Shown here piece after piece: positions 9,751 to 61,612 of a stretch of DNA of 64,000 nt. The stretch spans positions 310,001 through 374,000 of the forward strand of contig QPGO01000070.1 in NCBI GenBank assembly GCA_008632985.1, written 5' to 3'. The notes beneath the pieces were generated by a model that was not told where the DNA came from, did not search any database, and saw nothing but the letters and a program-made list of their open reading frames with translations. The position numbers and the translations under genes were made by a program. Positions within the stretch are counted from its first letter, which is position 1; every line of letters begins with the position of its first letter. This DNA is from Psammoneis japonica (lineage: Eukaryota).

Positions 9751-11019
9751 TTAAATTTCGGGACTCAAGTCGGATGCATTGTCAAGCTCCCGGCGCTGTC
9801 GCTTACGAATATAGATAGCCCCGGCAATGATAAGCACCGCTCCAGCAGCAATGGCGACGTAAACCGGGGTAGCAAGACCTCCGCCGTCTGAATCAGAAAC
9901 GTCATTGTCTTCTCCACCATCTCCAGTCGGATCTGACCGAGCCCCTTCGGGATCGATTTCAGTCCAGGTTACCCTGAAAACTCCTTCAGCTGCTTTATCG
10001 AACATTCCAACATCCATGTTCCCTCTGATAAATTCCTTGATATCGTTCTCAATGTTACTTGCTGCGCCGTCAGTGTATACCGTGATACCACCAAATGCCG
10101 CCGTGCACAAGTTGTTTGCCTGTGTAGCCGATTGACATGGAACTTAAGAGAAAGACTTATGTTAGTTTTACGATTCTTGACAGAATGCCGATGTTACTTG
10201 CAAAGAGCCGACAATGCTCATAGAACAGCATCTTACCTTGAAGTTCAGAATCATCAGGAACCACGCTGACTCCAATGATGTCGGAATTTCCACGGAGTAA
10301 CGAACTTGCAGAATTATCACATGCCGGAATGGATAGAGTTGGGAAAACTAACGCTACAATCGCCTTGTCGATCCCGGGAAGGATGGAGCCTCTCAAATCG
10401 CTATTGTCAGCTGGGTTATACTCCACCTCGTAATTGTAAAGTATGGGGGTTAGATTATCCATTGAAGTTTCGCCAAAGGACCTTCCGCCATTGCTGGAGC
10501 AAGGAGTAAGTGGAGGATCAAGGGTCGACTCCGGTGGTGCGGGTGGAGGCGGTGGAGGAGGAGGGGGCGGCGGCGGCGGCGGCGGCNNNNNNNNNNNNNN
10601 NNNNNNNNNNNNNNNNNNNNNNNNNNNNNNNNNNNNNNNNNNNNNNNNNNNNNNNNNNNNNNNNNNNNNNNNNNNNNNNNNNNNNNNNNNNNNNNNNNNN
10701 NNNNNNNNNNNNNNNNNNNNNNNNNNNNNNNNNNNNNNNNNNNNNNNNNNNNNNNNNNNNNNNNNNNNNNNNNNNNNNNNNNNNNTGGAGGCGGAGGCGA
10801 CACAGGGAGAGAGGGTGGTTGGACAGGAGGAGGAGGTGGCGACAGAGGTAGGGATGGATCTCCAGCACCGCCATATCCAGGACTGTCAACATCGATTTCA
10901 TCGGGGGAGTCTGACATGTGTGGTGGGAGTTTTCGATGGTGATGGTTGACGTCGGACCCTTCTGCCACAGTGAAAGCGGCAATCACGGCTGCAAACGGTA
11001 TGAACTTGAAAGGCTTCAT
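9751..11019 (-). CDS. Type I membrane/cell-surface protein with a poly-proline stalk, spanning the assembly gap
   Basis: Signal peptide MKPFKFIPFAAVIAAF, Pro runs on both sides of the gap, intron 10236-10143, and C-terminal TM helix VYVAIAAGAVLIIAGAIYI followed by RKRQRR. Confidence 0.7.
10587..10785. other. Assembly gap (N run) within a GGC-rich poly-Pro coding tract
   Basis: Run of N flanked by (GGC)n on the left and GGAGGCGGAGGC on the right. Confidence 0.99.
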
Positions 11020-19039: not shown

Positions 19040-21990
19040 AGGTCAAATCCAGGTGTGATGGCTCAGAAACATGCTTTTTTTAGCAAGTTTCACCTGGGGG
19101 GAAAACAGAAGTGCCATGCTCTCATGCAACTGTGACAGAGAGAAAAGAAAGAATGTGAGTGTGAGCCTGAGCATTTCTGACAAAGCATGGCACAGCAACA
19201 GTTCTTGAAAATGCAGTGGGCTGGCCAGCATCTTTCTTTGTGATGTGACAGGCTTTTGCATCATGAGTGACACAGTGAGAAAAGACAGTTGACACCACAC
19301 CTCCACTCACCCAGAGCATCAGAAGATGCCATGGTGCTCATGCTTTTTGTGCAAAGAAAAATGTTGTCAGTGGAAAATCACAAGCTGTTGTCCAAAGTTC
19401 GAGCTGGGCTGTTGGGGTGGCTTGGGCTTCCCAAGGTGTGACTGGGATTGACCAGGGTTTGTCATGCACAGCACAGGAAGGCTTGACAGCCTTTGCCAAT
19501 GGGTTGCTTGGGTCATCACACACTTTTCATCAAGTCATGAGATGACTGGATCATCCCTCTTGCATTGAGGGGCCTGGTTGATGGACAATTTACATCCACA
19601 ACCATCACAGCACTCAGGCAGCAGGTCAGGTGGAGAGTGTTCTTGCCATGCCACAGACAGATTGCATCCCAGAACTCTTGGCAAAAGAGAATTTGGTGCC
19701 ATTGAGTGCCAACAGGTGCATTGTCAGCCACGCTCCAGTTTTGGTGCTGTGGTTGACAGCTCTGGCTTTGATTTTGCTTTCCTCTCAGCTGCTTCTCACT
19801 TCACTTTGTGCGTGGTGTCTTTGTGGACCAACAAAGTGAGTGCACCATCAGCTTGGCTGCTGTTGACTGAGCTGATCATGTGGGAACATGCAGAGCACTT
19901 GCTTTGAAGACTCCATTGGACAAGGGATGGACCTGCAAATTTGATTGGGAGGGCAGACAGGGCCAATCTTGGGTTGTTTTCAGCCAAGGTCTCACCAGTT
20001 GGCACTGGAAGAAATTGTTGTGTGATTGCACCATTGGCGCCACTGCAGGGACTTCTGAAGACCAGCGCTGGTGGTTTGTAGATGATGTGAGTTTCAATTT
20101 TGGCAAGGCCTTGGATGACTGAGGTTTGTGACTTAGAATCGGATGGCTGAGGTTCATGACTTAGAATTGGATGACTGAGGTTCATGACTTGGCTTTCTTT
20201 GCTGGTGCTGTCAGTCTTGTGCTTGTTTGGTCTCACCAACGAAGTCTCTGAGGTGGCAGCTGCTTGAAGTGACAGCAAAGCCAAGGTCTCCAAAGCAGGC
20301 CCTGGCATTCTCCAGATTGGAGCTTGTTTTCTGGCACTGCCAGGATGTTCTTGGAGTTGTCAGCAGGGCAGCATCCATGCTTGGGTCCTTTGGCTCAGAG
20401 AGTCAAGAAAAAATCCTGAATTTTCCTGCCACTGCAGAGTCATTGGCATGCCATGGGGTGAGTGTGTTTGGGAAAGAATGCTTGCTGAAATCATGAGCTG
20501 GTGGTGGAAGAAGTCCCAGCCTGCAAGCTGTCATGCCAGGTGCGCCACCCTGTGTGATGCCTTCTTTGCTGAAAAGATGAAAAGGAAGGTGGCTCCAAAG
20601 TGACCATGGATGATCAGGATGCTCCAGCATTTGCAGCTGTTGAAGGCAAACCTTGTGCCAGATTGCCAAAAGTGCCCAACATTGTGTGACATTGGGGTCC
20701 TGTTCTCTTCATTGAATCCACAGGAGGTGTCAACAATTTGATTGTTCCAAATGAGCATTTTTGCATGATGTGTCTTGAAATTTTCATGCTCTTTGTCTGA
20801 TCACCCAAGGCATCACGTGTCGCCAAATCCAAAAACAACAGAGCTCTGCATCAGTGCAAAGTGCACTGGAATGGCACCACAGCACTGCTGGCTTGCTTTG
20901 CACACTGATGTTGCTGCAACACATGCACCAATGACAAAGCAAATCCCCAACAGCCAATGCTCGATTTGGCTGCCAAGCCTTTTCCCACCAAACATGCTGG
21001 TGTGCATCACATTGCACATTTTTCAGACAAACAATGCGCCCATGAAAAGAGAGGTGAGTGAAAGCCCTAAAAGGCATTGGGCAAAGCCCCCATGTTTGTA
21101 ACTTCAATGTGATTCAGTCACTCAAGCCATTGACAGTGCAGCTCAGAACATCTCAATTCTCTCTGATGCAGAGGATGGCTGATGCTGCTGTCAACATGTG
21201 CCTGAGAGGGGACAGACAGAGAAAAGGACAAAGCAAGTGCTGCTCCTGTGGACTCAGAGTGGCAGCTCATGGCCTGTTCTGTGAAAATGTGGCTTCTTTT
21301 GCTTCCAAACTTCTTCATGACACACTGCAATCTGCTCAGGAGTTCATTGCAAAAACCTCCACACATCCTCCTTTGGATGGAAAGGACTTGTTTGTGACTT
21401 CCATTTTCACCTGGCATCAAACAGCTTTCACCCAAACTAGCTCCAGTGCTTCTCACACACAGACCTGGGGTTCAGAGCAGTTGATGAGCTTGTGCAAGTC
21501 TGGAGAGTTAGTTTGTGGAGACTTCATGTGGCCCCAGCACTGGACATCCACAACCTCAGATCTCAAAGTTGTTGATGATGCTGCAAACTTGAATTTGTTT
21601 CAAGTGCTTCCATGGATGTGTTCTGTTCAATGACACTTCCATCCACAACAATCATGTGCAGATTGCTCATTTGAACTTGATTGTTGGCCACAACACCAGC
21701 AATGGCAAGGCATGCATCAATGGTGTCCACCAACTCAAAATGAGGGGCAGGCCACGCCACATTTAAAAACAGTTCTCCAGGCCAGGAATGCTGTCAAGAC
21801 ATTCTGTTTAAAAATTTTGATGTGCTTTTCAGGCAAGCATTGATCATTGGTGGCATGAAGCTTGATCTTGAGAGGAACATTGGAGCCAAAACATTGCCAA
21901 AGCCAAACAGCAAGTTGCAACTCCCAATGTCTCCCATCAAGAGACACATGATCATCAAGCAACAAAGAGTGGAAGATTTGGGCAACACTC
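19040..21990 (-). mobile_element. Decayed non-LTR retrotransposon (CRE-like, RT plus CCHC zinc knuckle plus restriction-like endonuclease region)
   Basis: Motifs in order across frameshifts: VDTSCGFNEENRT..HFWQSGTRFAFN, SKEGITQG..MTACRLGLLP, PWHANDS (=WYADD), ARACFGDLGFAVTSSSCHLRDFVGE, QFLP..LALSALPIKFAG, QEFWDAICLWHG, CDGCGCKLSINQAPQCK, AKAVKPSCAVHDKP, CVTHDAKAC. The 5' boundary is uncertain. Confidence 0.85.
20111..20190. repeat. 28-bp tandem repeat, about 2.9 copies, inside the LINE
   Basis: Units start at 20111, 20139 and 20167, consensus TTGGATGACTGAGGTTCATGACTTAGAA. Confidence 0.9.
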
Positions 21991-22685
21991 TTAGAGTCAA
22001 ATTGTGCCTCTGGTCTGAAGTCAAGATTTGGTGATCAATTTGTTTTCAAATCCATGGAGGTGCCACACAATCCAAAAACACACAACAAGCAGTCAGGAAG
22101 GAGAGAATGAAGAAGCCAACTGCAAAAGAATGATGCAGAAGCAGCAGCAACAACAGCAAGAAGTGTGACAAATCAAGTGCAACAAGTGCAAACAAAAGGA
22201 CAGAGCAGCTGACAATGACTGATGCAGCTGATGGGATGCTCAGCATGGATGACTGATGTGTGACGCATGGGTGGGAGAAGTTGTCAATTGAGGGGTGAGG
22301 GGTGTGAACAATGTCACCACCAAGCTCTTGACTTCTTAGAGTCAAATTGTGCCTCTGGTCTGATGTCAAGATTTGGTGATCAAATTGTTTTCAAATCCAT
22401 GGAGGTGCCACACAATCCACAAGCACAAAACAAGCAGTCAGGAAGGAGAGAATGAAGAAACCAACTGCAAAAGAATGATGCAGAAGCAGCAGCAGCAACA
22501 GCAAGAAGTGTGGCAAATCAAGTGCAACAAGTGCAAACACAAAAGGATGGAGCAGCTGATGATGGCTGATGCAGCTGATGGGATGCTCAGCATGGATGGC
22601 TGATGTGTGACACATGGGTGGGAGAAGTCATTCATCAATTGAGGGGTGAGGGGTGTGCACAATGTCACCACCAAGCTCTTGACTT
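21990..22685. repeat. Direct tandem duplication, about 345/351 bp
   Basis: Copies 21990-22334 and 22335-22685 both start CTTAGAGTCAAATTGTGCC and end CCAAGCTCTTGACTT, with a CAG-rich core. Confidence 0.95.
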
Positions 22686-34950: not shown

Positions 34951-35874
34951 TTATATATGCTTTGTTTCGGTAAGAATTGATCTTGGTGATCTGTGATGGG
35001 AACCATATTTGTTGATCTTTGTGGCCGAGGTCCCTTTTAGTTGGGTTGCAACAGAGGAATTGCGAAAGTTTTGCAAGGTCCCATTTCGGCAAATCTCGCC
35101 CTGCGTAAGTACCCAGGAGTTTTGGTCTATCCGGATAGACTTTGAAATTGAGCTCAAGAGAATGTCAAGGACAGCTGTATCGTCACACGTGACAATATCC
35201 AACGCGTTACAAACACAAGCCAGAGCCAGTGTAGAGTCTTTTACGCTGACGAACTTGTGATTGCAAACTGCCAATTCAGACTGGTAACGCGCAATCTCGA
35301 AAGCCTTTTCAAACGCCTTGGGTGTCAACACCGAGCAAGGCAACAGGTCAAGAAAGTGCCTTATGAATGACATGGTAGTGGGCGGGTTCATTCGCCATTC
35401 CAGCGCATTCAGAATCTCGACTTCCATGCTCGTGATTTGATCCTCCGTATAAATTCCTTGAGACAATCTTGACACGAGGTGAGGGTCCATAGCTTCCGCT
35501 TCGAAAACCTTGATGGCGGTGTACAAGCATGTCATTGAAGCAAGCTGGAATAACTTTCTTGAGGAGAGTGCGCGTCGGCCGGGCTCGGTCACGAGGTATC
35601 TATCCAAATAGTTCATCGCGATAGCGGCAGTTTCGCGGCTCAAATGACAAAAATCGATGATATCGTAGCACCAGTGAGCCATCTTGGTCCTCCATTCGAC
35701 ATCGGTGGGCGCTTCGGAATGAAGGGGGGAGACAGACTGATGCGTCGTCTCTTGCTGGTGAAAGTAGTCTTGACATTGGTACGTAGTTTCCTCCATCTTG
35801 AGCATCACCTCAAGAGATGAGGCGGTATATTCGGAAGCAGAGCTGCTACAAGCAGCGTTTGAAGAATTGCACAT
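34951..35874 (-). CDS. Diatom-specific cyclin (dsCYC2-like), copy 1
   Basis: Cyclin box WRTKMAHWCYDIIDFCHLSRETAAIAMNYLDRYL, FQLASMTCLYTAIK, LEWRMNPPT. Confidence 0.92.
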   Translation of the reverse strand: MCNSSNAACSSSASEYTASSLEVMLKMEETTYQCQDYFHQQETTHQSVSPLHSEAPTDVEWRTKMAHWCYDIIDFCHLSRETAAIAMNYLDRYLVTEPGRRALSSRKLFQLASMTCLYTAIKVFEAEAMDPHLVSRLSQGIYTEDQITSMEVEILNALEWRMNPPTTMSFIRHFLDLLPCSVLTPKAFEKAFEIARYQSELAVCNHKFVSVKDSTLALACVCNALDIVTCDDTAVLDILLSSISKSIRIDQNSWVLTQGEICRNGTLQNFRNSSVATQLKGTSATKINKYGSHHRSPRSILTETKHI

Positions 35875-36589
35875 GGTGATGTGTGTTTTTTGAATCTCAC
35901 AAGAATACGTGGACGATGATAGCGATGTCCTTTAGCGTTTTGTGAGAAGAGACAGAGGAAACGAGAAAAATTTAATGCCGGAGAAAATGACCCACAATAA
36001 GTCTTTCTACGTCAATTTCTACGGAGAAACTGTCAAACATGAAATATTTAGAGAAAATGACTTATTTGTGAAAAATCAAAATGACAGTGACCCGATTAGA
36101 CAAGATTTCAATGTATGTTGGCCCTTGACAAATCTCGTCGATGTCATTATGACTTCTCTTCGCACCGTCGATGACCGCGAATTGATTCACATTTAACGGG
36201 AAAACAATTAAACGATGACTACTTTCTTCGTAGAAAAGTTAGTTGGATCTACGTAGAAAGAACCGGGAATGGCATTTTCGGTCATTTTGAATTATTCGTT
36301 TCAATTATGAGCTCTTGTGCTTCCGTAGCCTTGGAGTGAACCCGCTCCACCCCTTCGAAGATAGATTGTAATCGAGTGGTGATACTATCATTCATTCAGT
36401 GCCTGTTTGTGTGTCATTGTCATTGTTGAATTGTTGCACGCAGATAAACAGGGGTTTGAGAATCCGAACATTCTCTGTTCACAGAAAGGACATAATACAA
36501 AAGTATTTTGGCGAAGACGACACAACAAACAAGAGTCTCAGCTCAGTTCACAACTTTGACTTGTCATTGGTAAGATAAAATTTTTGAAT

Positions 36590-37937: not shown

Positions 37938-38840
37938 TTAAGCTCTGTTGGCCACAGAACGGGGGGACCCATGAACAGATCCGCAGCCAGTCTCCACAGT
38001 CTTGGCGGACGTGATAGCCGCTGGAACCAATTGTTGGCACTTTTTGAGCGCTCCACTGTTGTAGAGGGCATTCTGTGCACTAGAAAGTTGCATTGAATCC
38101 GTGTCAATGGATGCAACCTTTGCAACAGACTCGAGATAGCTGTTCAGCGAATACTTGTTCATACCAACACATTCGAGAGCGTTGGCGACACAGGCAAAGG
38201 CAATAGTAGAGTCACGGATCTTGACAAACTCGTAATCACAAACCGCAGTCTCCGACTGGAAGCGAGCAATTTCAAGAGCGGCCTCAAGACTTTCGGGGCT
38301 CATTGCCGAGGATGGAATGAGACTGAGAAAGTGCCTGATGAACGACATGGTGGATGGCGGGTTGACCCTCCAGCCAAGAGCGTTGAGGATCTCGACTTCC
38401 ATGTCAGTGATCTGCGATTCTGTGTACATGCCACGGGACAAGTTTGAAACAAGTGCGGGATCAATAGCTTCCGGCTCGTAAATCTTGACCGCTGTGTACA
38501 GGCATGTCATGGCGGCAAGCTGGTAGTACTTTCGTGAGTAGAGTGCCCGGCTGCCCGTCGGTGTCGCGACAAAACGATCCAAGTAGCTAATGGCGATTGC
38601 TGTTGTTTCGCGGCTCAAGCTGCAAAAGTCAACAATCTGATAGCACCATTGAACCATCTTGGCACGGCAGTCAGCATCGAGGGTGGATCTGGCGTTGAGA
38701 GGAGCATTGGGTTGGTCGACCTGTTGGTGGTAGAGGTAATCTTCGCAGTGATAAGTGGATTCCTCCTGCATGCGCATTGCCTCAAGAGAAGAGACAATGT
38801 CTGCCGAGGAAGCACTGGTAGAGATGTTCAAAGAGTTCAT
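37938..38840 (-). CDS. Diatom-specific cyclin (dsCYC2-like), copy 2
   Basis: CRAKMVQWCYQIVDFCSLSRETTAIAISYLDRF, YQLAAMTCLYTAVK, LGWRVNPPST. Confidence 0.93.
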   Translation of the reverse strand: MNSLNISTSASSADIVSSLEAMRMQEESTYHCEDYLYHQQVDQPNAPLNARSTLDADCRAKMVQWCYQIVDFCSLSRETTAIAISYLDRFVATPTGSRALYSRKYYQLAAMTCLYTAVKIYEPEAIDPALVSNLSRGMYTESQITDMEVEILNALGWRVNPPSTMSFIRHFLSLIPSSAMSPESLEAALEIARFQSETAVCDYEFVKIRDSTIAFACVANALECVGMNKYSLNSYLESVAKVASIDTDSMQLSSAQNALYNSGALKKCQQLVPAAITSAKTVETGCGSVHGSPRSVANRA

Positions 38841-39052
38841 GTTGTTGATGTTGTTGTTGGATTGTATTTGCAGTGGAGGGAAAAATTATGTGCGTGTGGA
38901 TGGAAACGCGAAACAAGAAAGAAAATGATGTGGTTTCTCCGCGTTTTCGAAAACAACGTGGTCGTGAACTGACGAAAGGTCTCGACCCCAACGGTTTCCG
39001 GTACTGGAATTGGTACAGATTCTACGAGAGTAGCACGTAGGAAAATGTCAAA

Positions 39053-39575: not shown

Positions 39576-39947
39576 ATGGCGCCGACCAAGATCGTACTCC
39601 TCTCAGCCCTTGTTGCAGGTGCTTCCGCCTTTAATGCCAAGCCTTCGTTCCATGCAAAGGCTCCTGCTCTCAGCGGAGCATACGAAGACTACATGAACGC
39701 CCGTGCCGCCGAAAACGCTCCTCCCGCTCCTGCACCCGAGCCTGCTGCCCCTGCTGGTGGATCACTCTTTGAAGAATACATGGCTGCCCGTGGGCATGAT
39801 AGCTTCGGTGCCGCCGCCGCTGCCCCTGCCGCTGCCCCTGCCGCTTCCTACTCGCCCCCCGCCGGTGGACCCAAGAGTGCCAAGCCACTTCCCAAGGTTG
39901 GAAGGCAGCATCCTGGATCCTCCACCAACTACCTCAACAGCATGTAA
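39576..39947 (+). CDS. Small plastid-targeted Ala/Pro-rich protein, paralog A
   Basis: Signal peptide ending in ASAF, two Y/FE[DE]YMxxR motifs, C-terminus KPLPKVGRQHPGSSTNYLNSM. Confidence 0.8.
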   Translation: MAPTKIVLLSALVAGASAFNAKPSFHAKAPALSGAYEDYMNARAAENAPPAPAPEPAAPAGGSLFEEYMAARGHDSFGAAAAAPAAAPAASYSPPAGGPKSAKPLPKVGRQHPGSSTNYLNSM

Positions 39948-40677
39948 GGCGTTGGAAGGCCTTGTTGTAGGAATCTTCAAGTGTTACATGCTGTGGCTTG
40001 CTGTACGTTGAAAGACTCAAGACGTGACGATTCAGACTTCAAGACAAGAAAAATGTGAAGATCAACATGCTAGTTGAAATCTCACGTCAGATTTAGATGC
40101 TATGTATTTTCCTTATCAGTACTCATGTCCTACTAGAATAGCTTGTTTGCTATTGTATTGTGATGTGCACATTACAAGATTACGAGTAGACTACAACTCT
40201 AGCTACCGGTACTCTCTCTCTAGCTCTAGCTAGCTAGAGAGTAGTGGGCGTCTCTTCGTCTCTCTCCATTGCTTTCTGAGGATTGGTCCAACGCGTGCGA
40301 CGAGAAAAACTATCACATAAATTGATCAAAATGTGACTAAATTTGTATAGTCTGAAACAAGTATCGAAAACAGAATTTTCATATTATTTGTGAAATTAGT
40401 ATTCTTATATATATCAAAGCTCCTTCGTATAGTCTTTGGACTTACTATGCCAAGGATACTACAATAAAGATCATACTAGATCAGTTTTCATTCATAATAT
40501 ATGAACAAGAACGAATATGAGCAAAATGTGAGCCGTTTATGCGCTCACAAAAGCCTTCTCCAAAGATTGGCGACGCCTCTTGCGTTTTGTGTAGTTGTGT
40601 GACAGCAATTGTCCCCTCTGAAAAGCTCTCACAATACAGTCAGCTCTAACAGTCTCACCTGTTTGTATCACACGAGG

Positions 40678-41046
40678 ATGGCTCCGTTCAAAACTTTTCT
40701 TCTTTCTGCCATTGTTTCTAGTGCTTCTGCCTTCAACATGCAGCAGGCCCCCAATGAAATGGCTACGGCACTCAAAGGAGCGTACGAGGACTACATGAAA
40801 GAACGTGGCATGACCATTCAAGCCCCAGTCACTCCTGAAGAGCCTGCTGCTACTCAAGGCGGACTTTTCGAAGAATATATGGCTACCCGCGGCTACGATA
40901 CCTTCTACCATACAGATACCCATGCCGAGCCCGACACTATTGCGCCACCGGTAAACTTGCGTCGCGGACCAAAGTGCTCCAAGCCTATCCCCAAGCCTGG
41001 ACGTCAACACCCTGGGTACTCTTCAAAGTACCTCAACAGTATGTAG
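40678..41046 (+). CDS. Small plastid-targeted protein, paralog B
   Basis: ASAF presequence, GAYEDYMKER, GGLFEEYMATRG and KPIPKPGRQHPGYSSKYLNSM, collinear with paralog A. Confidence 0.8.
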   Translation: MAPFKTFLLSAIVSSASAFNMQQAPNEMATALKGAYEDYMKERGMTIQAPVTPEEPAATQGGLFEEYMATRGYDTFYHTDTHAEPDTIAPPVNLRRGPKCSKPIPKPGRQHPGYSSKYLNSM

Positions 41047-41805
41047 GGAGACAGATAAGGCGCCAGTTTTGAATTTCAAGGGATATCGACATGATGTTGC
41101 TTCGGAGGAATTTGACATTCATGACCATTCGCCCCTTTTTCGATTGTCGAGTCACGGTCAAAATACTATGGTACTCTTGAGATACAACTAGAAATGACAA
41201 AATAGAAACAACGCTATGGATATTACATGCGTGCCAGTGTTGCGTTTTACAAACTTAGCTCGAATGGTGAGCGTCATAAACGGGATTGTTATCTCACCCG
41301 ATGTTGTAGCTCACGGTTGCTTCATCGGCTTGCCTCCGATACGTCGCACCACGATGCCGAGCACGCTGGGTGCTACTGTGTGACACAAGCATGATCGAGT
41401 CCATCAGAAGCGTCTTTGCGATCTTATTGCCATTACACACACGCAGCCTAGAGTGTTTAGAAACAGTGAGAAGACACCATACTACAACTTACCCGACCAT
41501 CACACCCTCCAAAACAACCCTAAAGACTGCCAAACTCCCCAACAAAATCAGTCCCGGCGGCAGAAATCATTCAAAAAAATATTGCCGGCAAAGACAACAC
41601 GCGCACACAACACCCAATTCCCTTATTCAATGAAATCTTCACAACCTCAATTCTTGTTTCTATTACGCATTTCTTTAGTATTAGAACAACGTTTTTTAAT
41701 AAAAATAGGAAAAAATAGATACGGTATCTTGCGCGGCGCCGCTGTCAAAACTTGCATCCGACATCAGCCAGCAGAAGGTTGTAATGTTGTGACGACTTGT
41801 TCACC

Positions 41806-53812: not shown

Positions 53813-54396
53813 AATTTTCCCTCCCTTTTCTTAAGCTTCAAAAACACCAAAGAGATTTGTATATAACTCATACAGATCAAAGGTATCTTTATTAGAATGC
53901 GACCCTTACACGATCTGTTTGTTTCAACAAAAGATGATGGATCCTTCTCTTCTCGCCCGACGATGGTGACGCCATTCCCTTCGCATCGCGCTTCGCACTT
54001 CCGGCGTCCAACTTCGTGCGTTTTTCGATGTTGTGGATGCGGTGGATTTTTCCAATATTCAGCATTGTATGTTTCAAATACTAATTTGTCATTAAGATAT
54101 TAGAATACGGAGTAAGTTTATGTTAAAAGCTGTGTCGCAGGAATGTCTCCAGAAATGTCGGGTCATTTTAGGGCTCACCAACTGAAACTCAACGCACAAC
54201 ACACAACACACCATGAGCCATGAGCATAGCGCATAGTCCGCCGCTACAGCTAAACGCAACACCAACAGTTGAAGGCCGAACAAGTAGTTGAATCTTCTGT
54301 TTACCACTTATCAAGACATTCAACTACTGCATTGTCGACAGCAGCACAAGTTGAAAGCCTTAGTGGACTCTCCAGCTTTTCAGCTATCAAGACACG

Positions 54397-55371
54397 ATGC
54401 GTTGGACTTTTGTAGTGGTTGTTGTTGCGACACTGTTTGTCACCATGGTGGTTGAGCGTATGAACATTTCAATGGCATCTCAGTCATCTTTTGCTATGAA
54501 GGTAAAGAGAAAGACTTCCACGACGAAACCACCAGCAGCAACAGAATCGCCGGGGTTCACCTTTTTGGTGGGCCTGGAGGGTACCGGGCATCATTTGATG
54601 GCAAAAATACTAAAGCGATCTCCGGCATTGAAGCGAATAGAAGAGCTCGGCCTCATGAATGACCTGACAGAGCTAGACAGTCTCTTATTCAGCAAACCTC
54701 AACGAAACTCGGGTCTCTTGAACCCACATTTCAGAACCGAGCGATTTGATGTAACAACGACACAGAACGAAGTGGTACATCTCATGAGAAAAATCTCAAA
54801 CGAACTTGGCAATGAAACGTTTGCCATTCCTGTGAATGCCAATGGACACGGACTCATGGTATCATATCCCACTGGCATTTCAATGGCCACATCACACAAG
54901 CGACTCGAGAATTACCCCCACTTGAATCTGTTTTATGAAACGTGCGAACTAGCTGGAGTATCCTGTTCTCATCTTTACCTCTATCGGGATCCTCATTCAG
55001 TTGTAAAGTCTACAACATTCAGTCGAAAGTTCAACTCTAACGTAAAGATGGCGACAGATCTCTACATTGCCATGCTGGATGTCATTTTCGATCAGTTCTC
55101 GTCACCTCTTTCACGGACCATTGGCTGTATTGGCCTCTACGATGACAACAATACAGATACGTGGGGAATTATCCGAGATGCGTTTGGATGGGGAAACCAA
55201 CACGACGTGTTTGACGCCACCGTACATGAATTGTACAAGCCGCCAACCGTCATGACACCCGAGACACGTCAGGAGCTGTTTCCTCCACAATTTAATAGGG
55301 ATATGCGATCCTTTATCGAGGCTCACGAGCGCACTCTAGAGTTTTGTCGGGAACAACAAATGGTGAAGTAG
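54397..55371 (+). CDS. Type II membrane sulfotransferase-like (P-loop) protein
   Basis: N-terminal TM helix, 5'-PSB-like LVGLEGTGHH and 3'-PB-like YLYRDPHSVVKS. Confidence 0.6.
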   Translation: MRWTFVVVVVATLFVTMVVERMNISMASQSSFAMKVKRKTSTTKPPAATESPGFTFLVGLEGTGHHLMAKILKRSPALKRIEELGLMNDLTELDSLLFSKPQRNSGLLNPHFRTERFDVTTTQNEVVHLMRKISNELGNETFAIPVNANGHGLMVSYPTGISMATSHKRLENYPHLNLFYETCELAGVSCSHLYLYRDPHSVVKSTTFSRKFNSNVKMATDLYIAMLDVIFDQFSSPLSRTIGCIGLYDDNNTDTWGIIRDAFGWGNQHDVFDATVHELYKPPTVMTPETRQELFPPQFNRDMRSFIEAHERTLEFCREQQMVK

Positions 55372-55481
55372 AGGTACGCTGTTGCTTGAGTTTGTTTCCT
55401 GGTTTCTAGGTATGACACTTGTACTAGTAGGTAGCAAAACGTTTTACTTATTTTGCACGGCATACAGTCTAACACGAATAT

Positions 55482-55900
55482 CTTCATGCTTTTCCTTCAC
55501 CTCATCTTCCGCCTTCTCAGCGTCCTTCATGGCTGCTTCTTAGCTCTCATTTTCATTGTGTGGAGCTCTGGGACGAGGCTTCCTTCCGGGATTTCCACTT
55601 CACCTGCAAAGATCTGATTTGGACTTACTTCCTTTCCACAATGCGTGGCGTTGGGTCCAGTGTGAGGACCTGGGCTGGCTCCCTCCATGCTTGCTGCGAT
55701 AAGAAAGATGTCCCCCCGAAGCGATCGCTTCCCTGCCAAAAGGTCCAACCGTGAGATTTGCTTCTTCTCCAACTGAGATTTGCACGTCTTCGGCACACAA
55801 AACCTTGCTGTTGCTTCATCCATGAGAAAGAGAAGCACGTCCTTCATGGCAGCCCCGACTCCGAAACCCAAGCCTATCGCAGAGAGCAACATCACACAAA
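55482..55900 (-). pseudogene. Decayed partial copy of exon 2 of the neighbouring Ysc84/SYLF gene
   Basis: Aligns to about 56290-56800 (GFGVGAAMKDV, EANLTVGPFGREA, PEGSLVPELH) with deletions, frameshifts and Tyr->His/Cys changes. Confidence 0.9.
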
Positions 55901-56232
55901 AATGTTAGTGAGATCATTATCAAAATTCGCAGAAAACGCCGGACTAGAATGGCTTGTAGAAAGTTTAGTTCTTCCAGGAGCAACAATTCTAACAGTGTTT
56001 AGAAGAGATTCAGGGTTGTATGGCATCCTGATGTAGCACAGCTTCGGCTTCAAATTCATCGTTTAACAAATTATGTACGGCTGAGTCTACTAACTACAAC
56101 ATGTCCTTTCTTTCCTCCTTCCTCCTCTTGATACAAGCCATTCTGCCTCTTGTTATAGGCCATAGACAAGCACAAACATGACTCAACAATCTACTTTGTG
56201 TACACAGACAAGCATCAACACAAATACGCAAT

Positions 56233-57134
56233 CTACTGTGCCGACACGGGCTCCTTCTCTGCCTCCTTCTCGGCGTCGACGTACTTGATGTCATCGTTCT
56301 TTTCCTTGGCCTCTTCAGCCGCCTTCTCTGCTTCCTTCCTGGCAGCTTCTACCTTTTGTTTTTCTTCCTCGTTAGGGACGGCGGTCTCCCCGGCGGCGAG
56401 GAGCTCGAGCTTCCTGTGGAGTTCTGGAACGAGGCTGCCTTCGGGGAGTTCCACTGCCCCTTCAAACAAGATTTGACGTGGATTGGCCTCCTTTCCATAA
56501 TACTTGGCGTTGGCTCCTGAGCGAGGACCTAGACCGGCTCCCTCAACACTAGCAGCGACAAAGATGCCTCTGGAGAAAGCGACAGACACGACACCTCCCA
56601 TGCCCTTGTTGGACAGCTCGGCTGACGCTTTCGCTTCCCTGCCAAAAGGGCCGATCGTGAGATTCGCTTCTCCTCCAATCGAGACTTGCCCGTCTCCGGC
56701 ATACGTCTGCACGGTTCCTTCGTCCATAAGGAAGAGAATAACATCCTTCATGGCAGCCCCGACGATAAAACCGAAGCCTATCAAAAGAAGAAGCATCACA
56801 AAATCACAGGTAAGATCTTAAAAGTAGTCAAGACACGGTACACGCAGAAACCGTTAAGCATCGAAAAAAATCATAACTCACCTACACCACCCATACCAAC
56901 TGCAGAGGGAGGACTCCACTTTCCATCTTCTCCTTTCATCATCATGACGCCTGTACCAGCATTCCCGCTGAACATGAAACCGGCTTCCACGACTCTGATG
57001 AGAACAATGCCTTTGGCGTCCTGAAACAGGTCCTTGGCAATGCCCTTCGTTTTGGGGTCCAAAGCTGCATCAAGCACGTGGTTGGCATTCCAAATCATGC
57101 CCTCCATTGTGGTTCCGTCCGGTCGTTTCGTCAT
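56233..57134 (-). CDS. Ysc84/SYLF (SH3YL1-like) domain protein, 2 exons
   Basis: AGFMFSGNAGTGVMM, WSPPSA, GPFGREA, FSRGIFVAASVEG, NAKYYG. The intron at 56881-56778 is in phase. Confidence 0.9.
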
Positions 57135-57889
57135 GGTTGATGCCTTTTGATCGTATGTTGGTCGTCGCTTCTTGATATCTTTTTGTGACAGACTTGCGGG
57201 GAGGTGTCACGCTTCGGGGTTCGTATTCCTTACTTTTACTACGGTATCTGCGCTTTCGTAGACAGTTTATCTTACTTTCTCGCGATCAAACGATAGGGAG
57301 TGAGTGCGGAACCAGATGTCTGTCCGTACCGCATGGCCCCCTCTTAGAGCTAGTAGCTAGATAGAGCCACGCCAAGGCAGGAAAAGGAGTGACAAGAGAC
57401 GCATTGTTGTTGCAGCGTTTGAATTCAATGGAGAACGAACACCTCCGCTTGACACTCCTAATTGCATGAGCTTTCTCGTGTGGGATCCGGGAGCTCGAGA
57501 GTTGACTGAAACAGGTCGCAGTGACGAGCAACTACCTACGGAAGTATGTCACAACGTGGACGGCATCGGGTCGAGAACAGCTGTGGATTCGAGATTTTGA
57601 TGCTAGCCTATGCGGTCAAGTTGGAGTCGACGAAACAAACCCTCCAGCGTGGAGAGCATTGTCAAACACCCAAGCGCGCCAAGAGATACCGCATACGAAT
57701 ACGATGTATCGCAGTCCCGTGGCAAGATCGCGTCTCACGACTGAGATTCCGTACAAAGATACGTAATCTCATCGTAGAGGTCAAATCTCGTCTCACAATT
57801 TCCGTTGCCAGGCAGGGTCACGTTCAATCAGCCGAAATTGTGTCCGTTACCTCGTTTTCATTCATTCGGCACACAAAAACAAAATCACG

Positions 57890-59162
57890 ATGCGTGACAG
57901 AGGCTATCACATTGTTCCACATTCGACCGAGACAATGCAATCGCGACACCTTCACGACCACCCGTACCCACACCATCGTCATTTGGTTGTCGCCTACCGC
58001 CACATTGTGGTTCTTGTTATTGCGGCGTTTATGGTGGGCATTGGTTTCACGACGCAACTGAAAAGGACCAATCTCTTGGATGATCGTGAATCACTGCCTT
58101 TTCAGTTCTCGGATTCGACCGACCTTCCCGATTCCACATCGGATGGCAATGGTCCTGGTGTAGTTTGGCTCATGTCTTTTCCAAATTCTGGAACTTCATT
58201 CACCCTTAAAATGATTCACCATGTGAGTCAGATGGTAGCAGCTACCAACTATGGTGAAGAGAGCACGGACGAATCTGGAAATTCCATTCCTATACACTCA
58301 AATGGAACCAACGGACCATTCTGGATTTTTGGTTCCAATCCAACCCAAAATGTCAGCTACCCGAATACCTACGTATTGACGAAGACACACTGTGGTGCGT
58401 ATTGTCCATGAATAGTCCCTTCTCCAATGTTATTTCCTCTTTTGTCACTTAAGGCTCATCTTGCTCTCTTCTTATCCTTCAGGAGGCCGTTGCGAGAACT
58501 GTGGTCCGTCGAAGTATGTTGAGAGCCCTCACTCATTCTTGGTTCAGTGTCTATCTGGAAAGCGCGTTGATGCCAGCTCCAAGGGCAAGAGAAGCACCCA
58601 CGACGTGAGGTACTCCTCGGATCTTGTGAAGAAGGCTGTTCATTTGATTCGTAGTCCCTATGACAATGTCGTTTCGCGATTTCATTTGCAAGTACATGGC
58701 TTTGTCAAGAAGAATGATACAGCCAAGATCGATTCTTTTCCAAGCACACGAGAAGGCTTTCGTGCTTTTTGTAGGTCACTAGACGCACGATATTTACACG
58801 AAGAAGAAACTTCGCACATCGTTGATCAGGAGGTACTGGCACTTGTCAAACATGTCCCCTGTCACGCGGAGTTCTTCAGATACATCGAATGGCACAACCT
58901 TGCTTTCTTTACAACGGACGAACTTCTCAGCGTTCCCACCCATGTGCTGCATTACGAGGACTATAGTACGGGATTCAACAAGACTGTATCTGAGCTTTTG
59001 GATTTTCTGCAGCTGGAATGGAGGGGTGATGAATCTCAGTTTATTGCTGGGAAAGAGTATTCTGAGTACTATCTTCAAGAGGAAAGGGAGGCCGTGAAAG
59101 CTGCAATGAAAGCAATGGCGTCTCGCACAACTTGGGACAATATCCAACACTACTTCCCCTAG
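57890..59162 (+). CDS. Sulfotransferase-family protein, 2 exons
   Basis: TM helix, WLMSFPNSGTSFT, LTKTHC|GG, HLIRSPYDNVVSRF, LHYED. The intron at 58395-58482 is in phase. Confidence 0.85.
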
Positions 59163-59443: not shown

Positions 59444-60313
59444 TTAATGTCTGATAATAGAGCGTGGTGATCCTTCCACCGAACCCCAGTTCTCGGATGG
59501 CTTAAATGTACTGCTAGCTCCAATCGACAAGCGCCTTCTAGGCATACCAGAGACACAGTGAACATCTTCGACAATAGGTGAATGATCAATGGATGCAATC
59601 CTGGAGATTGACTCCATGGCGTTCATGTTGCGCTGCACTTTTTCGAGGGCATTTGCAACCGCGGTAAAAGCAATTGTAGACGGATTGACAGCCACAAAGT
59701 TGTAGCAGTGAACGGCCTCCTCGGTCTGATATTTTGCCAATTCCAAAGCTTCGTCGCGCACTTCAGCACTCATGGCTGGCAAAAGATCGAAGAAATGCCT
59801 TACAAAAGACATGGCCGTGGGCGGGTTCATCCTCCACTCTAGAGCCTCAAGAATGGATTGCTCCATATCAGTGACTTGCTTTTCAGTGTAGACACCTCGG
59901 GAAAGATTTGAAACCATTTTCGGATCCATGGCCTCAGGCTCATGGAGCTTGATTGCGGTATAGAGGCAGGTCATGGCAGCGAGCTGGAACATCTTTCTGG
60001 ACATGAGAAGGTTTTGTCCAGATTCGGTCACAAGGTAGCGATCCAAGTAGTTCATGGCGATTGCCACAGTCTCGCGCTTGAGCTTGCAGAAGTCAACAAC
60101 CTGGCAGCACCATTGAGACATCTTGGAACGGCACTCGGCATCAACAGGAGCCGAGCTCGGGGAAAGGGGACCATGGGCACTGTTTACGTCGACTTGCTGT
60201 TGGTAGAGATAGTCGCTGCATTTGTATGCACCTTCCTCTTGCATGCGCATGACTTCGATGGTGGCGATGATATCCTGGATGGTCATGTTGTTTTCGGGAA
60301 CAGTTGAAATCAT
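59444..60313 (-). CDS. Diatom-specific cyclin (dsCYC2-like), copy 3
   Basis: CRSKMSQWCCQVVDFCKLKRETVAIAMNYLDRYL, FQLAAMTCLYTAIKLHEP, LEWRMNPPT. Confidence 0.92.
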   Translation of the reverse strand: MISTVPENNMTIQDIIATIEVMRMQEEGAYKCSDYLYQQQVDVNSAHGPLSPSSAPVDAECRSKMSQWCCQVVDFCKLKRETVAIAMNYLDRYLVTESGQNLLMSRKMFQLAAMTCLYTAIKLHEPEAMDPKMVSNLSRGVYTEKQVTDMEQSILEALEWRMNPPTAMSFVRHFFDLLPAMSAEVRDEALELAKYQTEEAVHCYNFVAVNPSTIAFTAVANALEKVQRNMNAMESISRIASIDHSPIVEDVHCVSGMPRRRLSIGASSTFKPSENWGSVEGSPRSIIRH

Positions 60314-61612
60314 TGTGATGGCGGATACTGAAAAAGTTGTGGGAGAAAAATTGTGACCCTTTTCTGGTGGCGCCGAGGGAAAGCGATCGATTGATGATCG
60401 TGTTCTGTTCCCACTTTTCAAAATTACTCCCGCGAGTTGGTACCGTGTAGACACATTTTTCACTTATGCCCGGTCGGCTTCTATCAAAATTTCATTTTTA
60501 CGACTATCCGCAGACATAGTATCATTAATTTTCAAAAGCACTTAAGAATACTAATTAAAGTCATTGGGCCTGTCACGGCAATTCAGAGTCATCGTTCGAA
60601 GCGTTTGCATTGAATAAAATATATTCATGACTTAAATTATATTTTTAATGAAAAAATCTAAAAAACACCGAAAGTGACATCAGACAAAGCTGGAATGACC
60701 TTTACAGTCATTTCCCCCGCTTGCACTCTGCTTTTCGTAACCACATACGTAAGGAGGGGGGATTTTTAGTTTTTCCGGCAACGGTTTGCGGTACCCAAGG
60801 TCATTCCCACGATTATCAAAACGGTTTCAGATGACCGAGGCTTATGTCATTCCAGTGTCGTACCCAACGCCGAAGCAACTGCCCAAACGAGTTTTGGCGT
60901 TCCCATCCACGTCACACAGCAAACTGTTCAGAACCCATTTCACCGCCAAATAATTTGGGAGGACGTGGACCGGACGCGGATGAAGTTCTTCTCTTCTGCT
61001 TCTTTCATAATTATTATTCGTTAAACAATGATAAATGAATTCCAAGAGAAAACAGATTTCAATCTTGCAGGTTCTTCGCCGTTGTTTTGCTTGCAACCTG
61101 CGCCTGTCTCTTTGAGGGCTTGACGGCCAGCCCAACCAAGGACCAGCAATTCTGGTCAGTTAGGACACAGCCATTGAATTTCTAGATAGAGAGATAAGAG
61201 ATAGATGGCATGGAAATTACCTTCACTAACGCGATCAAGTGGTTCTCAGACCTGTGGTGCAACTGCCCCCCCCCGTTTCTCGCCTCCTCCTGACATTTTG
61301 AGAATTGCGGCATCCTCCGCGCCCCCCACAAAAACTTAACTCTTTTGGTTATTGCATGCTTTGTACTTCCTGTCAATGCCCTTTCTACTCAAAACTCTAC
61401 TCTCTAGAAAGAGTCCACCGGTCGTAATCCCTCAAAGCAAACCCACGACATTCTGCACATTGCATGCACTCCAGCATTTCGATCGAAAAGGATCTTGAGT
61501 ACAAAAGCCTTTACCCAATAGATTCCACTCGCCCGCGACCCGCGAGCGAATCTTCATCCAGAATGTGAAAATCAACCATGAGACGGTGATGCCGTTGTCA
61601 CGTCTCGAAGCC

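Follow-up and report, generated by a model that had tools for sequence, protein, structure and literature searches.

In ascomycete fungi, repeat-induced point mutation (RIP) alters duplicated DNA almost only by C:G>T:A transitions, mainly CpA>TpA; TpA rises, GC content falls and usually both copies are hit. Here we describe a partial second copy of a SYLF/Ysc84 gene in a 64,000-nucleotide (nt) stretch of Psammoneis japonica (contig QPGO01000070.1 of assembly GCA_008632985.1, positions 310,001–374,000; the whole of this stretch is referred to below as the window). In a preliminary description of the locus, this copy had been attributed to a mutator that converts TA and CG dinucleotides and that would reach ordinary gene duplicates in addition to transposons. 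The analysis favoured a different reading, at a probability of roughly 80 %: that the segment is an ordinary, old, non-processed pseudogene fragment, a partial tandem SYLF duplicate that has decayed by balanced background mutation.

Many diatoms have DNMT4 enzymes, which are related to fungal RID and whose function is unknown (PMC9998398). In mutation-accumulation lines of Phaeodactylum tricornutum, mutation was significantly affected by the dinucleotide context, the mutagenic contexts being CG, CC and TG and the bias running GC>AT; the available part of that report does not mention TA (PMC6604790). A TA-directed or duplicate-directed process is not described in the available parts of either paper, and the listed titles and abstract openings of literature naming both 'diatom' and 'repeat-induced point mutation' contained no report of RIP in a diatom.

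The SYLF gene and its partial downstream copy

The locus was divided into the following parts, listed in the direction of transcription.

56882..57134, minus strand: exon 1 of the intact SYLF/Ysc84 gene (the parent), with ATG at 57134–57132, 84 codons plus 1 nt, from the open reading frame (ORF) and its translation
56778..56881, minus strand: 104-nt intron of the intact gene, with GT..AG splice sites read on this strand
56233..56777, minus strand: exon 2 of the intact gene, stop codon at 56233–56235
55900..56232, minus strand: 333-nt spacer separating the copy from the parent's stop codon, without recognizable exon-1 or intron homology
55478..55899, minus strand: copy of exon 2, from the alignment, with blastn pieces at 55559–55899 and 55478–55540

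The spliced product of the intact gene is 265 amino acids long. Exon 2 carries most of the Ysc84 domain together with an acidic Lys/Glu-rich tail and matched PF04366 (Ysc84/SYLF, 'Las17-binding protein actin regulator') at 90.3 bits, above the Pfam gathering cut-off of 25.1, with an E value of 1.1e-25 over profile positions 3–116 of 127. Among 1.84 billion representative proteins there were 1783 relatives at E≤0.001, the best of them 51 % identical and several, at 262–273 amino acids, similar in length to the spliced product; the nearest protein clusters in the Atlas were all Ysc84. A second protein-homology search with exon 2 gave 995 candidates, none at E≤1e-5, and a metagenome scan with the same exon gave 253 pattern matches, none of which was confirmed by tblastn. 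On the basis of these sequence similarities, the intact gene is assigned to the Ysc84/SYLF family.

The copy lies downstream on the same strand, about 330 nt past the stop codon of the parent. It shared 312 of 419 aligned bases with the parent (74 %; blastn E 1.8e-40, and 1.6e-09 for the second piece), which places the duplication of exon 2 well beyond chance. At the protein level it was 65 % identical to the parent over 104 codons, compared with at most 41 % to any of the 28 outgroups compared. Homology extends from the splice acceptor (AG at 55874–55875), with an intron tail of about 26 nt (55874–55899), to about codon 165 of the parent, and ends about 50 nt before the position matching the parent's stop codon. 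The copy lacks exon 1, a start codon and the C-terminal end. Since the AG acceptor was copied together with some 26 nt of the intron, the duplication took place at the DNA level and not by retro-copying. An assembly artefact was likewise rejected, the contigs of two sequencing runs (from one sample) showing the arrangement without difference. With the exon-1 peptide, tblastn across the whole window returned only the self-match, the next best hit (E 0.48) lying elsewhere in the window, and the local DNA alignment score for an exon-1 remnant in the spacer was 24, equal to the median of 100 shuffles (maximum 33).

Relative to the parent, the copy contains the following lesions.

55801..55802, minus strand: 2-nt insertion, causing a frameshift
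55709..55710, minus strand: junction of a 47-nt deletion; the lost bases correspond to 56569–56615 of the intact gene, encoding the conserved ...LSNKGMGGVVSVAFSR... core
55610..55611, minus strand: junction of a 3-nt deletion
55559..55560, minus strand: junction of a 46-nt deletion; the lost bases correspond to 56370–56415 of the intact gene
55540..55542, minus strand: TAA in the parent-homologous frame, at parent codon 143 (GTA, Val)

Since the 47- and 46-nt segments are present in outgroups, both deletions are losses in the copy. The core of the SYLF domain is deleted and frameshifted and is not readable in one frame, and the match of the copy to PF04366 covered residues 9–33 only, at 19 bits, below the cut-off of 25.1. 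Lacking exon 1 and a start codon, and carrying a frameshift, deletions, a stop codon and substitutions at invariant residues, the copy is predicted to be unable to make a SYLF domain.

The parent was aligned with the 30 best outgroup proteins to polarize these differences, giving 138 comparable codons and 53 amino-acid differences; at 51 % identity or less, the relatives are too distant for polarizing DNA changes. Forty of the 53 differences were derived in the copy, 11 were derived in the intact gene and two were ambiguous. The residues lost in the copy include G71 and Y94, each present in 30/30 outgroups, as well as R86 (27/30) and F73 (26/30). Within well-polarized codons, 22 of the nucleotide changes were transitions and 22 were transversions. 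Amino-acid change was thus concentrated on the copy branch, including sites invariant in 30/30 outgroups, as expected under relaxed constraint. The direction assumed in the preliminary description, with the changes on the copy, is borne out by this assignment, the loss of an invariant Tyr (30/30) included. Because the outgroups place 40 of the 53 changes on the copy branch, selection appears to have kept the parent, which fits the earlier suggestion that selection preserved one copy.

The copy resembles known non-processed pseudogenes in being a DNA-level copy that retains an intron–exon boundary and adjoins its parent on the same strand. Its 5′ exon is missing, it contains a frameshift, deletions and a premature stop, and it has lost invariant residues that are conserved in the parent. 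Homology into the intron, disabling lesions and relaxed constraint on the copy branch were all found. It differs from such pseudogenes in lying inside the parent's own transcribed 3′ tail and in a ratio of nonsynonymous to synonymous divergence (dN/dS) of 0.28, somewhat under the expectation for a never-functional copy. As a mechanism, an old same-strand tandem DNA duplication of the SYLF/Ysc84 gene would have left what now amounts to exon 2 together with the final few bases of the intron. This remnant would then have drifted under the ordinary background mutation of the genome while purifying selection kept the parent, and TA>CA/TG and CG>TG/CA changes would form a small part of its drift toward background composition.

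Transcription was assessed from three sequencing runs, which derive from one sample and one study and none of which is on record as RNA. In one of them a single contig spanned the entire stretch with no differences; the DNA studied here may itself derive from that run, which is not independent evidence. A second run had next to none of the sequence words of the stretch. The remaining run yielded an intron-less contig over the SYLF locus.

55519..57136, minus strand: intron-less contig of 1514 nt, comprising exon 1, exon 2, the spacer and 381 of the 422 nt of the copy

This contig covers exon 1 over 56881–57136, joined to exon 2, and its joint at the intron ('skips 104, CT..AC (cut +1)') removes exactly 104 bases. 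Over the SYLF locus it had no other letters and no gaps, and RNA editing was rejected as an option on the same absence of other letters. The run had no cover at 55434–55500 or beyond 57176. It behaves as complementary DNA, and the contig probably represents one messenger RNA (mRNA). Since the intron-less form spans these parts, it points to an mRNA containing them even if the run were DNA. With the caveat that overlapping transcripts may have been merged in the contig, the copy belongs to the 3′ tail transcribed from the parent.

Substitution spectrum and dinucleotide composition

The sequence differences that had first suggested directed mutation are present in the intact gene and the copy as described: CCATAATAC in the intact gene (ATAATA at 56497–56502) against CCACAATGC in the copy (55638–55643), GGCATACG in the intact gene (about 56701) against GGCACACA in the copy (about 55795), TTCGTCCATAAG against TTCATCCATGAG, GCGAGG against GTGAGG, and ATTCGC against ATTTGC. 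The three aligned Tyr codons, all TAT in the intact gene, read TGT, CAT and TGT in the copy. These changes are a handful out of 107 differences between copy and parent, which comprise 54 transitions and 53 transversions. From the intact gene to the copy, the transitions were 15 G>A, 14 A>G, 13 T>C and 12 C>T, giving 27 for C>T plus G>A and 27 for T>C plus A>G, and GC content was unchanged (52.0 % vs 53.0 %). The pattern of directed change seen in the quoted strings was not confirmed over the full difference set.

Three cyclin paralogs (Cyclin_N plus Cyclin_C) lie within 25 kb of one another in the window at about 68 % DNA identity and served as substitution-spectrum controls.

34951..35931, minus strand: cyclin paralog
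37938..38885, minus strand: cyclin paralog
59444..60463, minus strand: cyclin paralog

The ratios of transitions to transversions in two functional pairs of these paralogs were 90:95 and 65:79, similarly near 1:1.

Dinucleotide composition was compared as observed/expected (o/e) ratios for the parent, the copy and their surroundings.

Whole window: CA/TG 1.28, TA 0.49, CG 0.81
26.5 kb outside ORFs of at least 150 amino acids: CA/TG 1.30, TA 0.56, CG 0.78
Aligned part of parent exon 2: CA/TG 0.86, TA 0.43, CG 0.89
Copy: CA/TG 1.25, TA 0.21, CG 0.63

In CA/TG the parent exon is the outlier and the copy is at the window-wide value. The copy has 60 CA and TG dinucleotides vs 44 in the parent (permutation p=0.019), together with six fewer CG and five fewer TA, neither of which is significant alone; the TpA count falls from 10 to 5. 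In aligned columns, CpG numbered 18 in the copy vs 25 in the parent (o/e 0.66 vs 0.87). As TA depletion and CA/TG excess are found throughout the window, DNA outside ORFs included, the copy is relaxing from the coding composition of its parent to the window background, which is poor in TA, mildly poor in CG and rich in CA/TG. Through its net drift to CA/TG, the copy reaches the value of its surroundings. The surrounding DNA is almost all single-copy in a self-BLAST of the window, and its composition would reflect a general context-dependent bias of mutation or selection. The shift of the copy toward a TA-poor, CA/TG-rich window is thus like a general genomic dinucleotide bias. It differs from the context-dependent mutation of P. 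tricornutum, in which CG, CC and TG are mutagenic and GC>AT changes are favoured (PMC6604790).

The copy is like a target of ascomycete RIP in that numerous point changes, in part at pyrimidine–purine steps, separate a duplicate from its partner. It is unlike such a target in that just 27 of the 107 differences are C>T or G>A, set against 27 reverse transitions and 53 transversions, and in that TpA is halved, CpA plus TpG goes up, GC stays the same and one of the two copies is clean. Neither a near-total predominance of C:G>T:A change nor TpA enrichment with CpA/TpG depletion was found, and the trend was the opposite: TpA/ApT was 5/22 in the copy and 10/18 in the parent, and (CpA+TpG)/(ApC+GpT) was 60/32 and 44/31 respectively. 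Methyl-CpG deamination would leave fewer CpGs in the copy than in the parent, as is seen, and CG>TG/CA changes were 8/24 from parent to copy vs 3/18 in reverse, but the excess was not significant in the site test (p=0.14) and the CpG o/e of the copy is only slightly below that of DNA outside long ORFs (0.63 vs 0.78). No transposon domains were found in 15 scanned ORFs out of the 20 in the window of at least 250 amino acids; the remaining five share their positions with ORFs of the opposite strand or of another frame, and small or degraded transposons may escape such a scan. Apart from the SYLF pair, self-BLAST of the window gave only five other repeat pairs.

Age, past constraint and competing explanations

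Nei–Gojobori estimates for copy vs parent were a synonymous divergence (dS) of 0.76 and a nonsynonymous divergence (dN) of 0.215, giving the dN/dS of 0.28 (bootstrap interval 0.16–0.46), and the differences at codon positions 1, 2 and 3 numbered 24, 30 and 53. A synonymous divergence of about 0.76 indicates an old duplicate, which does away with the idea that the copy is at an early stage of decay. The expectation for a copy neutral since birth beside a constrained parent, dN/dS near (1+omega)/2, was examined by simulation, with 400 runs per setting.

Several results weigh against reading the segment as an ordinary pseudogene. Transitions occurred at 7/20 TA sites of the parent vs 19/175 other A/T sites (odds ratio 4.4, Fisher p=0.008), a value that is uncorrected, post hoc on the data that generated the hypothesis, based on seven sites and drawn from one of many possible contexts. 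No such excess was found in the cyclin controls (two functional pairs, four directional comparisons), with TA odds ratios of 0.39–0.70. Three of the seven TA-site transitions are in Tyr codons, so that all three aligned Tyr codons are altered by transitions, and two are synonymous. The TA o/e of the copy, 0.21, is also under the window background of about 0.5. The excess was not significant at TA sites in the reverse direction (3/10 vs 23/188, p=0.13) or at CG sites in either direction (9/48 vs 18/172, p=0.14; reverse, 6/36 vs 21/178, p=0.42). The context bias on which the preliminary description depended was present nominally for TA and not significant for CG. The simulated dead-on-arrival copies had median dN/dS values of 0.38–0.58, above the observed ratio, and values of 0.283 or less arose in 0–14 % of runs (1–4 % at the transition bias nearest that observed), a weak indication that coding constraint may have acted on the copy during some of its past. 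Because the +2 insertion and the −47 deletion offset each other, the copy can be read in its own frame for 125 codons without a stop, most likely by chance. As to transcription, the type given for the run with the intron-less contig is a guess ('DNA?'), and overlapping transcripts can become merged in a single contig. We regard the TA-context excess and the lowish dN/dS as loose ends.

A mutator aimed at duplicates or at silenced chromatin, turning TA and CG into CA/TG as in transposons and sparing the expressed parent, would account for the transitions at TA sites and the lesser excess at CG sites, for the higher CA plus TG count of the copy and for Tyr losses that the outgroups place on the copy branch, and many diatoms do have the RID-related DNMT4 enzymes (PMC9998398). 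It is nevertheless very improbable, as transitions at TA or CG sites make up just 16 of the 107 differences, half of all differences are transversions, the directions of transition are balanced with GC unchanged, and four indels are present. The end-state composition is that of window DNA outside long ORFs, so targeting is unneeded, and a high-depth spliced contig over the copy fits a silenced state poorly. The data that tested the proposal are also those that suggested it, and the scanned ORFs of the window supplied no transposon as a reference. The claim that such a mutator reaches gene duplicates or follows silencing marks is accordingly not upheld. Also very improbable is a present-day use of the copy, whether as a terminal exon joined alternatively to exon 1 at the AG acceptor that it has kept or as an RNA-level element of the 3′ untranslated region (UTR). 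The acceptor AG and a pyrimidine-rich intron tail are kept, the reading frame that starts at the acceptor runs for 115 codons without a stop, the copy is transcribed together with its parent and TA (UpA) is very scarce in it. The sole joint seen, however, is that from exon 1 to the parent's exon 2 (contigs drop rare forms), and the product would be without a 16-residue conserved core, would include about 32 out-of-frame residues, would have lost G71, R86 and Y94 and falls below the Pfam cut-off.

There is a better, if still doubtful, case for the copy having been a full, working tandem paralog in the past, long kept by selection, which later lost exon 1 and gained its lesions. This would explain a dN/dS under the dead-on-arrival medians and the distribution of differences over codon positions. 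The peptide PEGSLVPELH is identical in both proteins despite four synonymous differences, the frameshifted block keeps 19/31 identical residues in the parent's frame, implying a late frameshift, and 104 homologous codons are without a stop. On the other hand, a 2:1:1 excess at third positions is expected even if only the parent was constrained, the simulation tail probability rises to 0.14 under stronger transition bias, and the probability of no stop in 104 codons under pure drift is 0.09–0.21. The 333-nt spacer has no exon-1 trace and almost no room for a promoter, and the sample of 138 codons is small. A more speculative combination, which we consider unlikely, joins two claims: that the pseudo-exon reads out a genome-wide, not repeat-specific, erosion of TpA and CpG to CpA/TpG through transitions at pyrimidine–purine steps, and that the copy may have functioned as a second SYLF gene over a large part of its past, until the parent's 3′ UTR took it in. 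An old pseudogene fragment drifting to background composition remains the preferred reading.

Other features of the window and significance of the locus

Downstream of the copy, the SYLF locus faces a convergent neighbour.

54364..55371, plus strand: convergent ORF of 335 amino acids, no Pfam family; its contig in the run with the intron-less SYLF contig ends at 55425

The contig of this neighbour is separate and of 20-fold lower depth than the SYLF contig. The two convergent contigs end 94 nt apart (55425 and 55519), with 55426–55518 uncovered and no transcript overlap in the contigs. The plus-strand ORFs flanking the SYLF locus, 54364–55371 and 57767–58411, each have a short glycine-rich motif after a hydrophobic stretch. 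Elsewhere, a unit of about 346 nt occurs twice in tandem at positions 21989–22685, with 93 % identity by BLAST; global alignment of the units showed 18 differences over 346 aligned bases, of which 13 were transitions. Each of the three adjacent double differences between the units was a CA<>TG doublet, against about one adjacent double difference expected by chance on a rough estimate, and CA<>TG was the commonest double-transition class in the cyclin pairs too (6 and 5 cases). The segments 40678–41048 and 39576–39949 form a 65 %-identical pair whose differences are strongly skewed (A>C 30, T>C 24, C>T 22, C>A 5, G>A 4), implying a composition shift between the copies. Positions 10587–10785 are an assembly gap of 199 N, and Rfam gave no matches over the whole window.

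Genome-wide erosion of TpA and CpG, if true, would explain the low TA (about 0.5) and high CA/TG (about 1.3) of DNA outside long ORFs, and would also explain the recurrent CA<>TG doublet differences between young repeats. The present analysis of the SYLF copy takes away a presumed case of a microalgal mutator that seeks out duplicates. A neutral copy beside a conserved parent gives polarized substitutions, and pooled pairs of this kind could test whether TpA erosion is mutational. The locus itself presents a parent gene bearing its own decayed exon within its 3′ tail.

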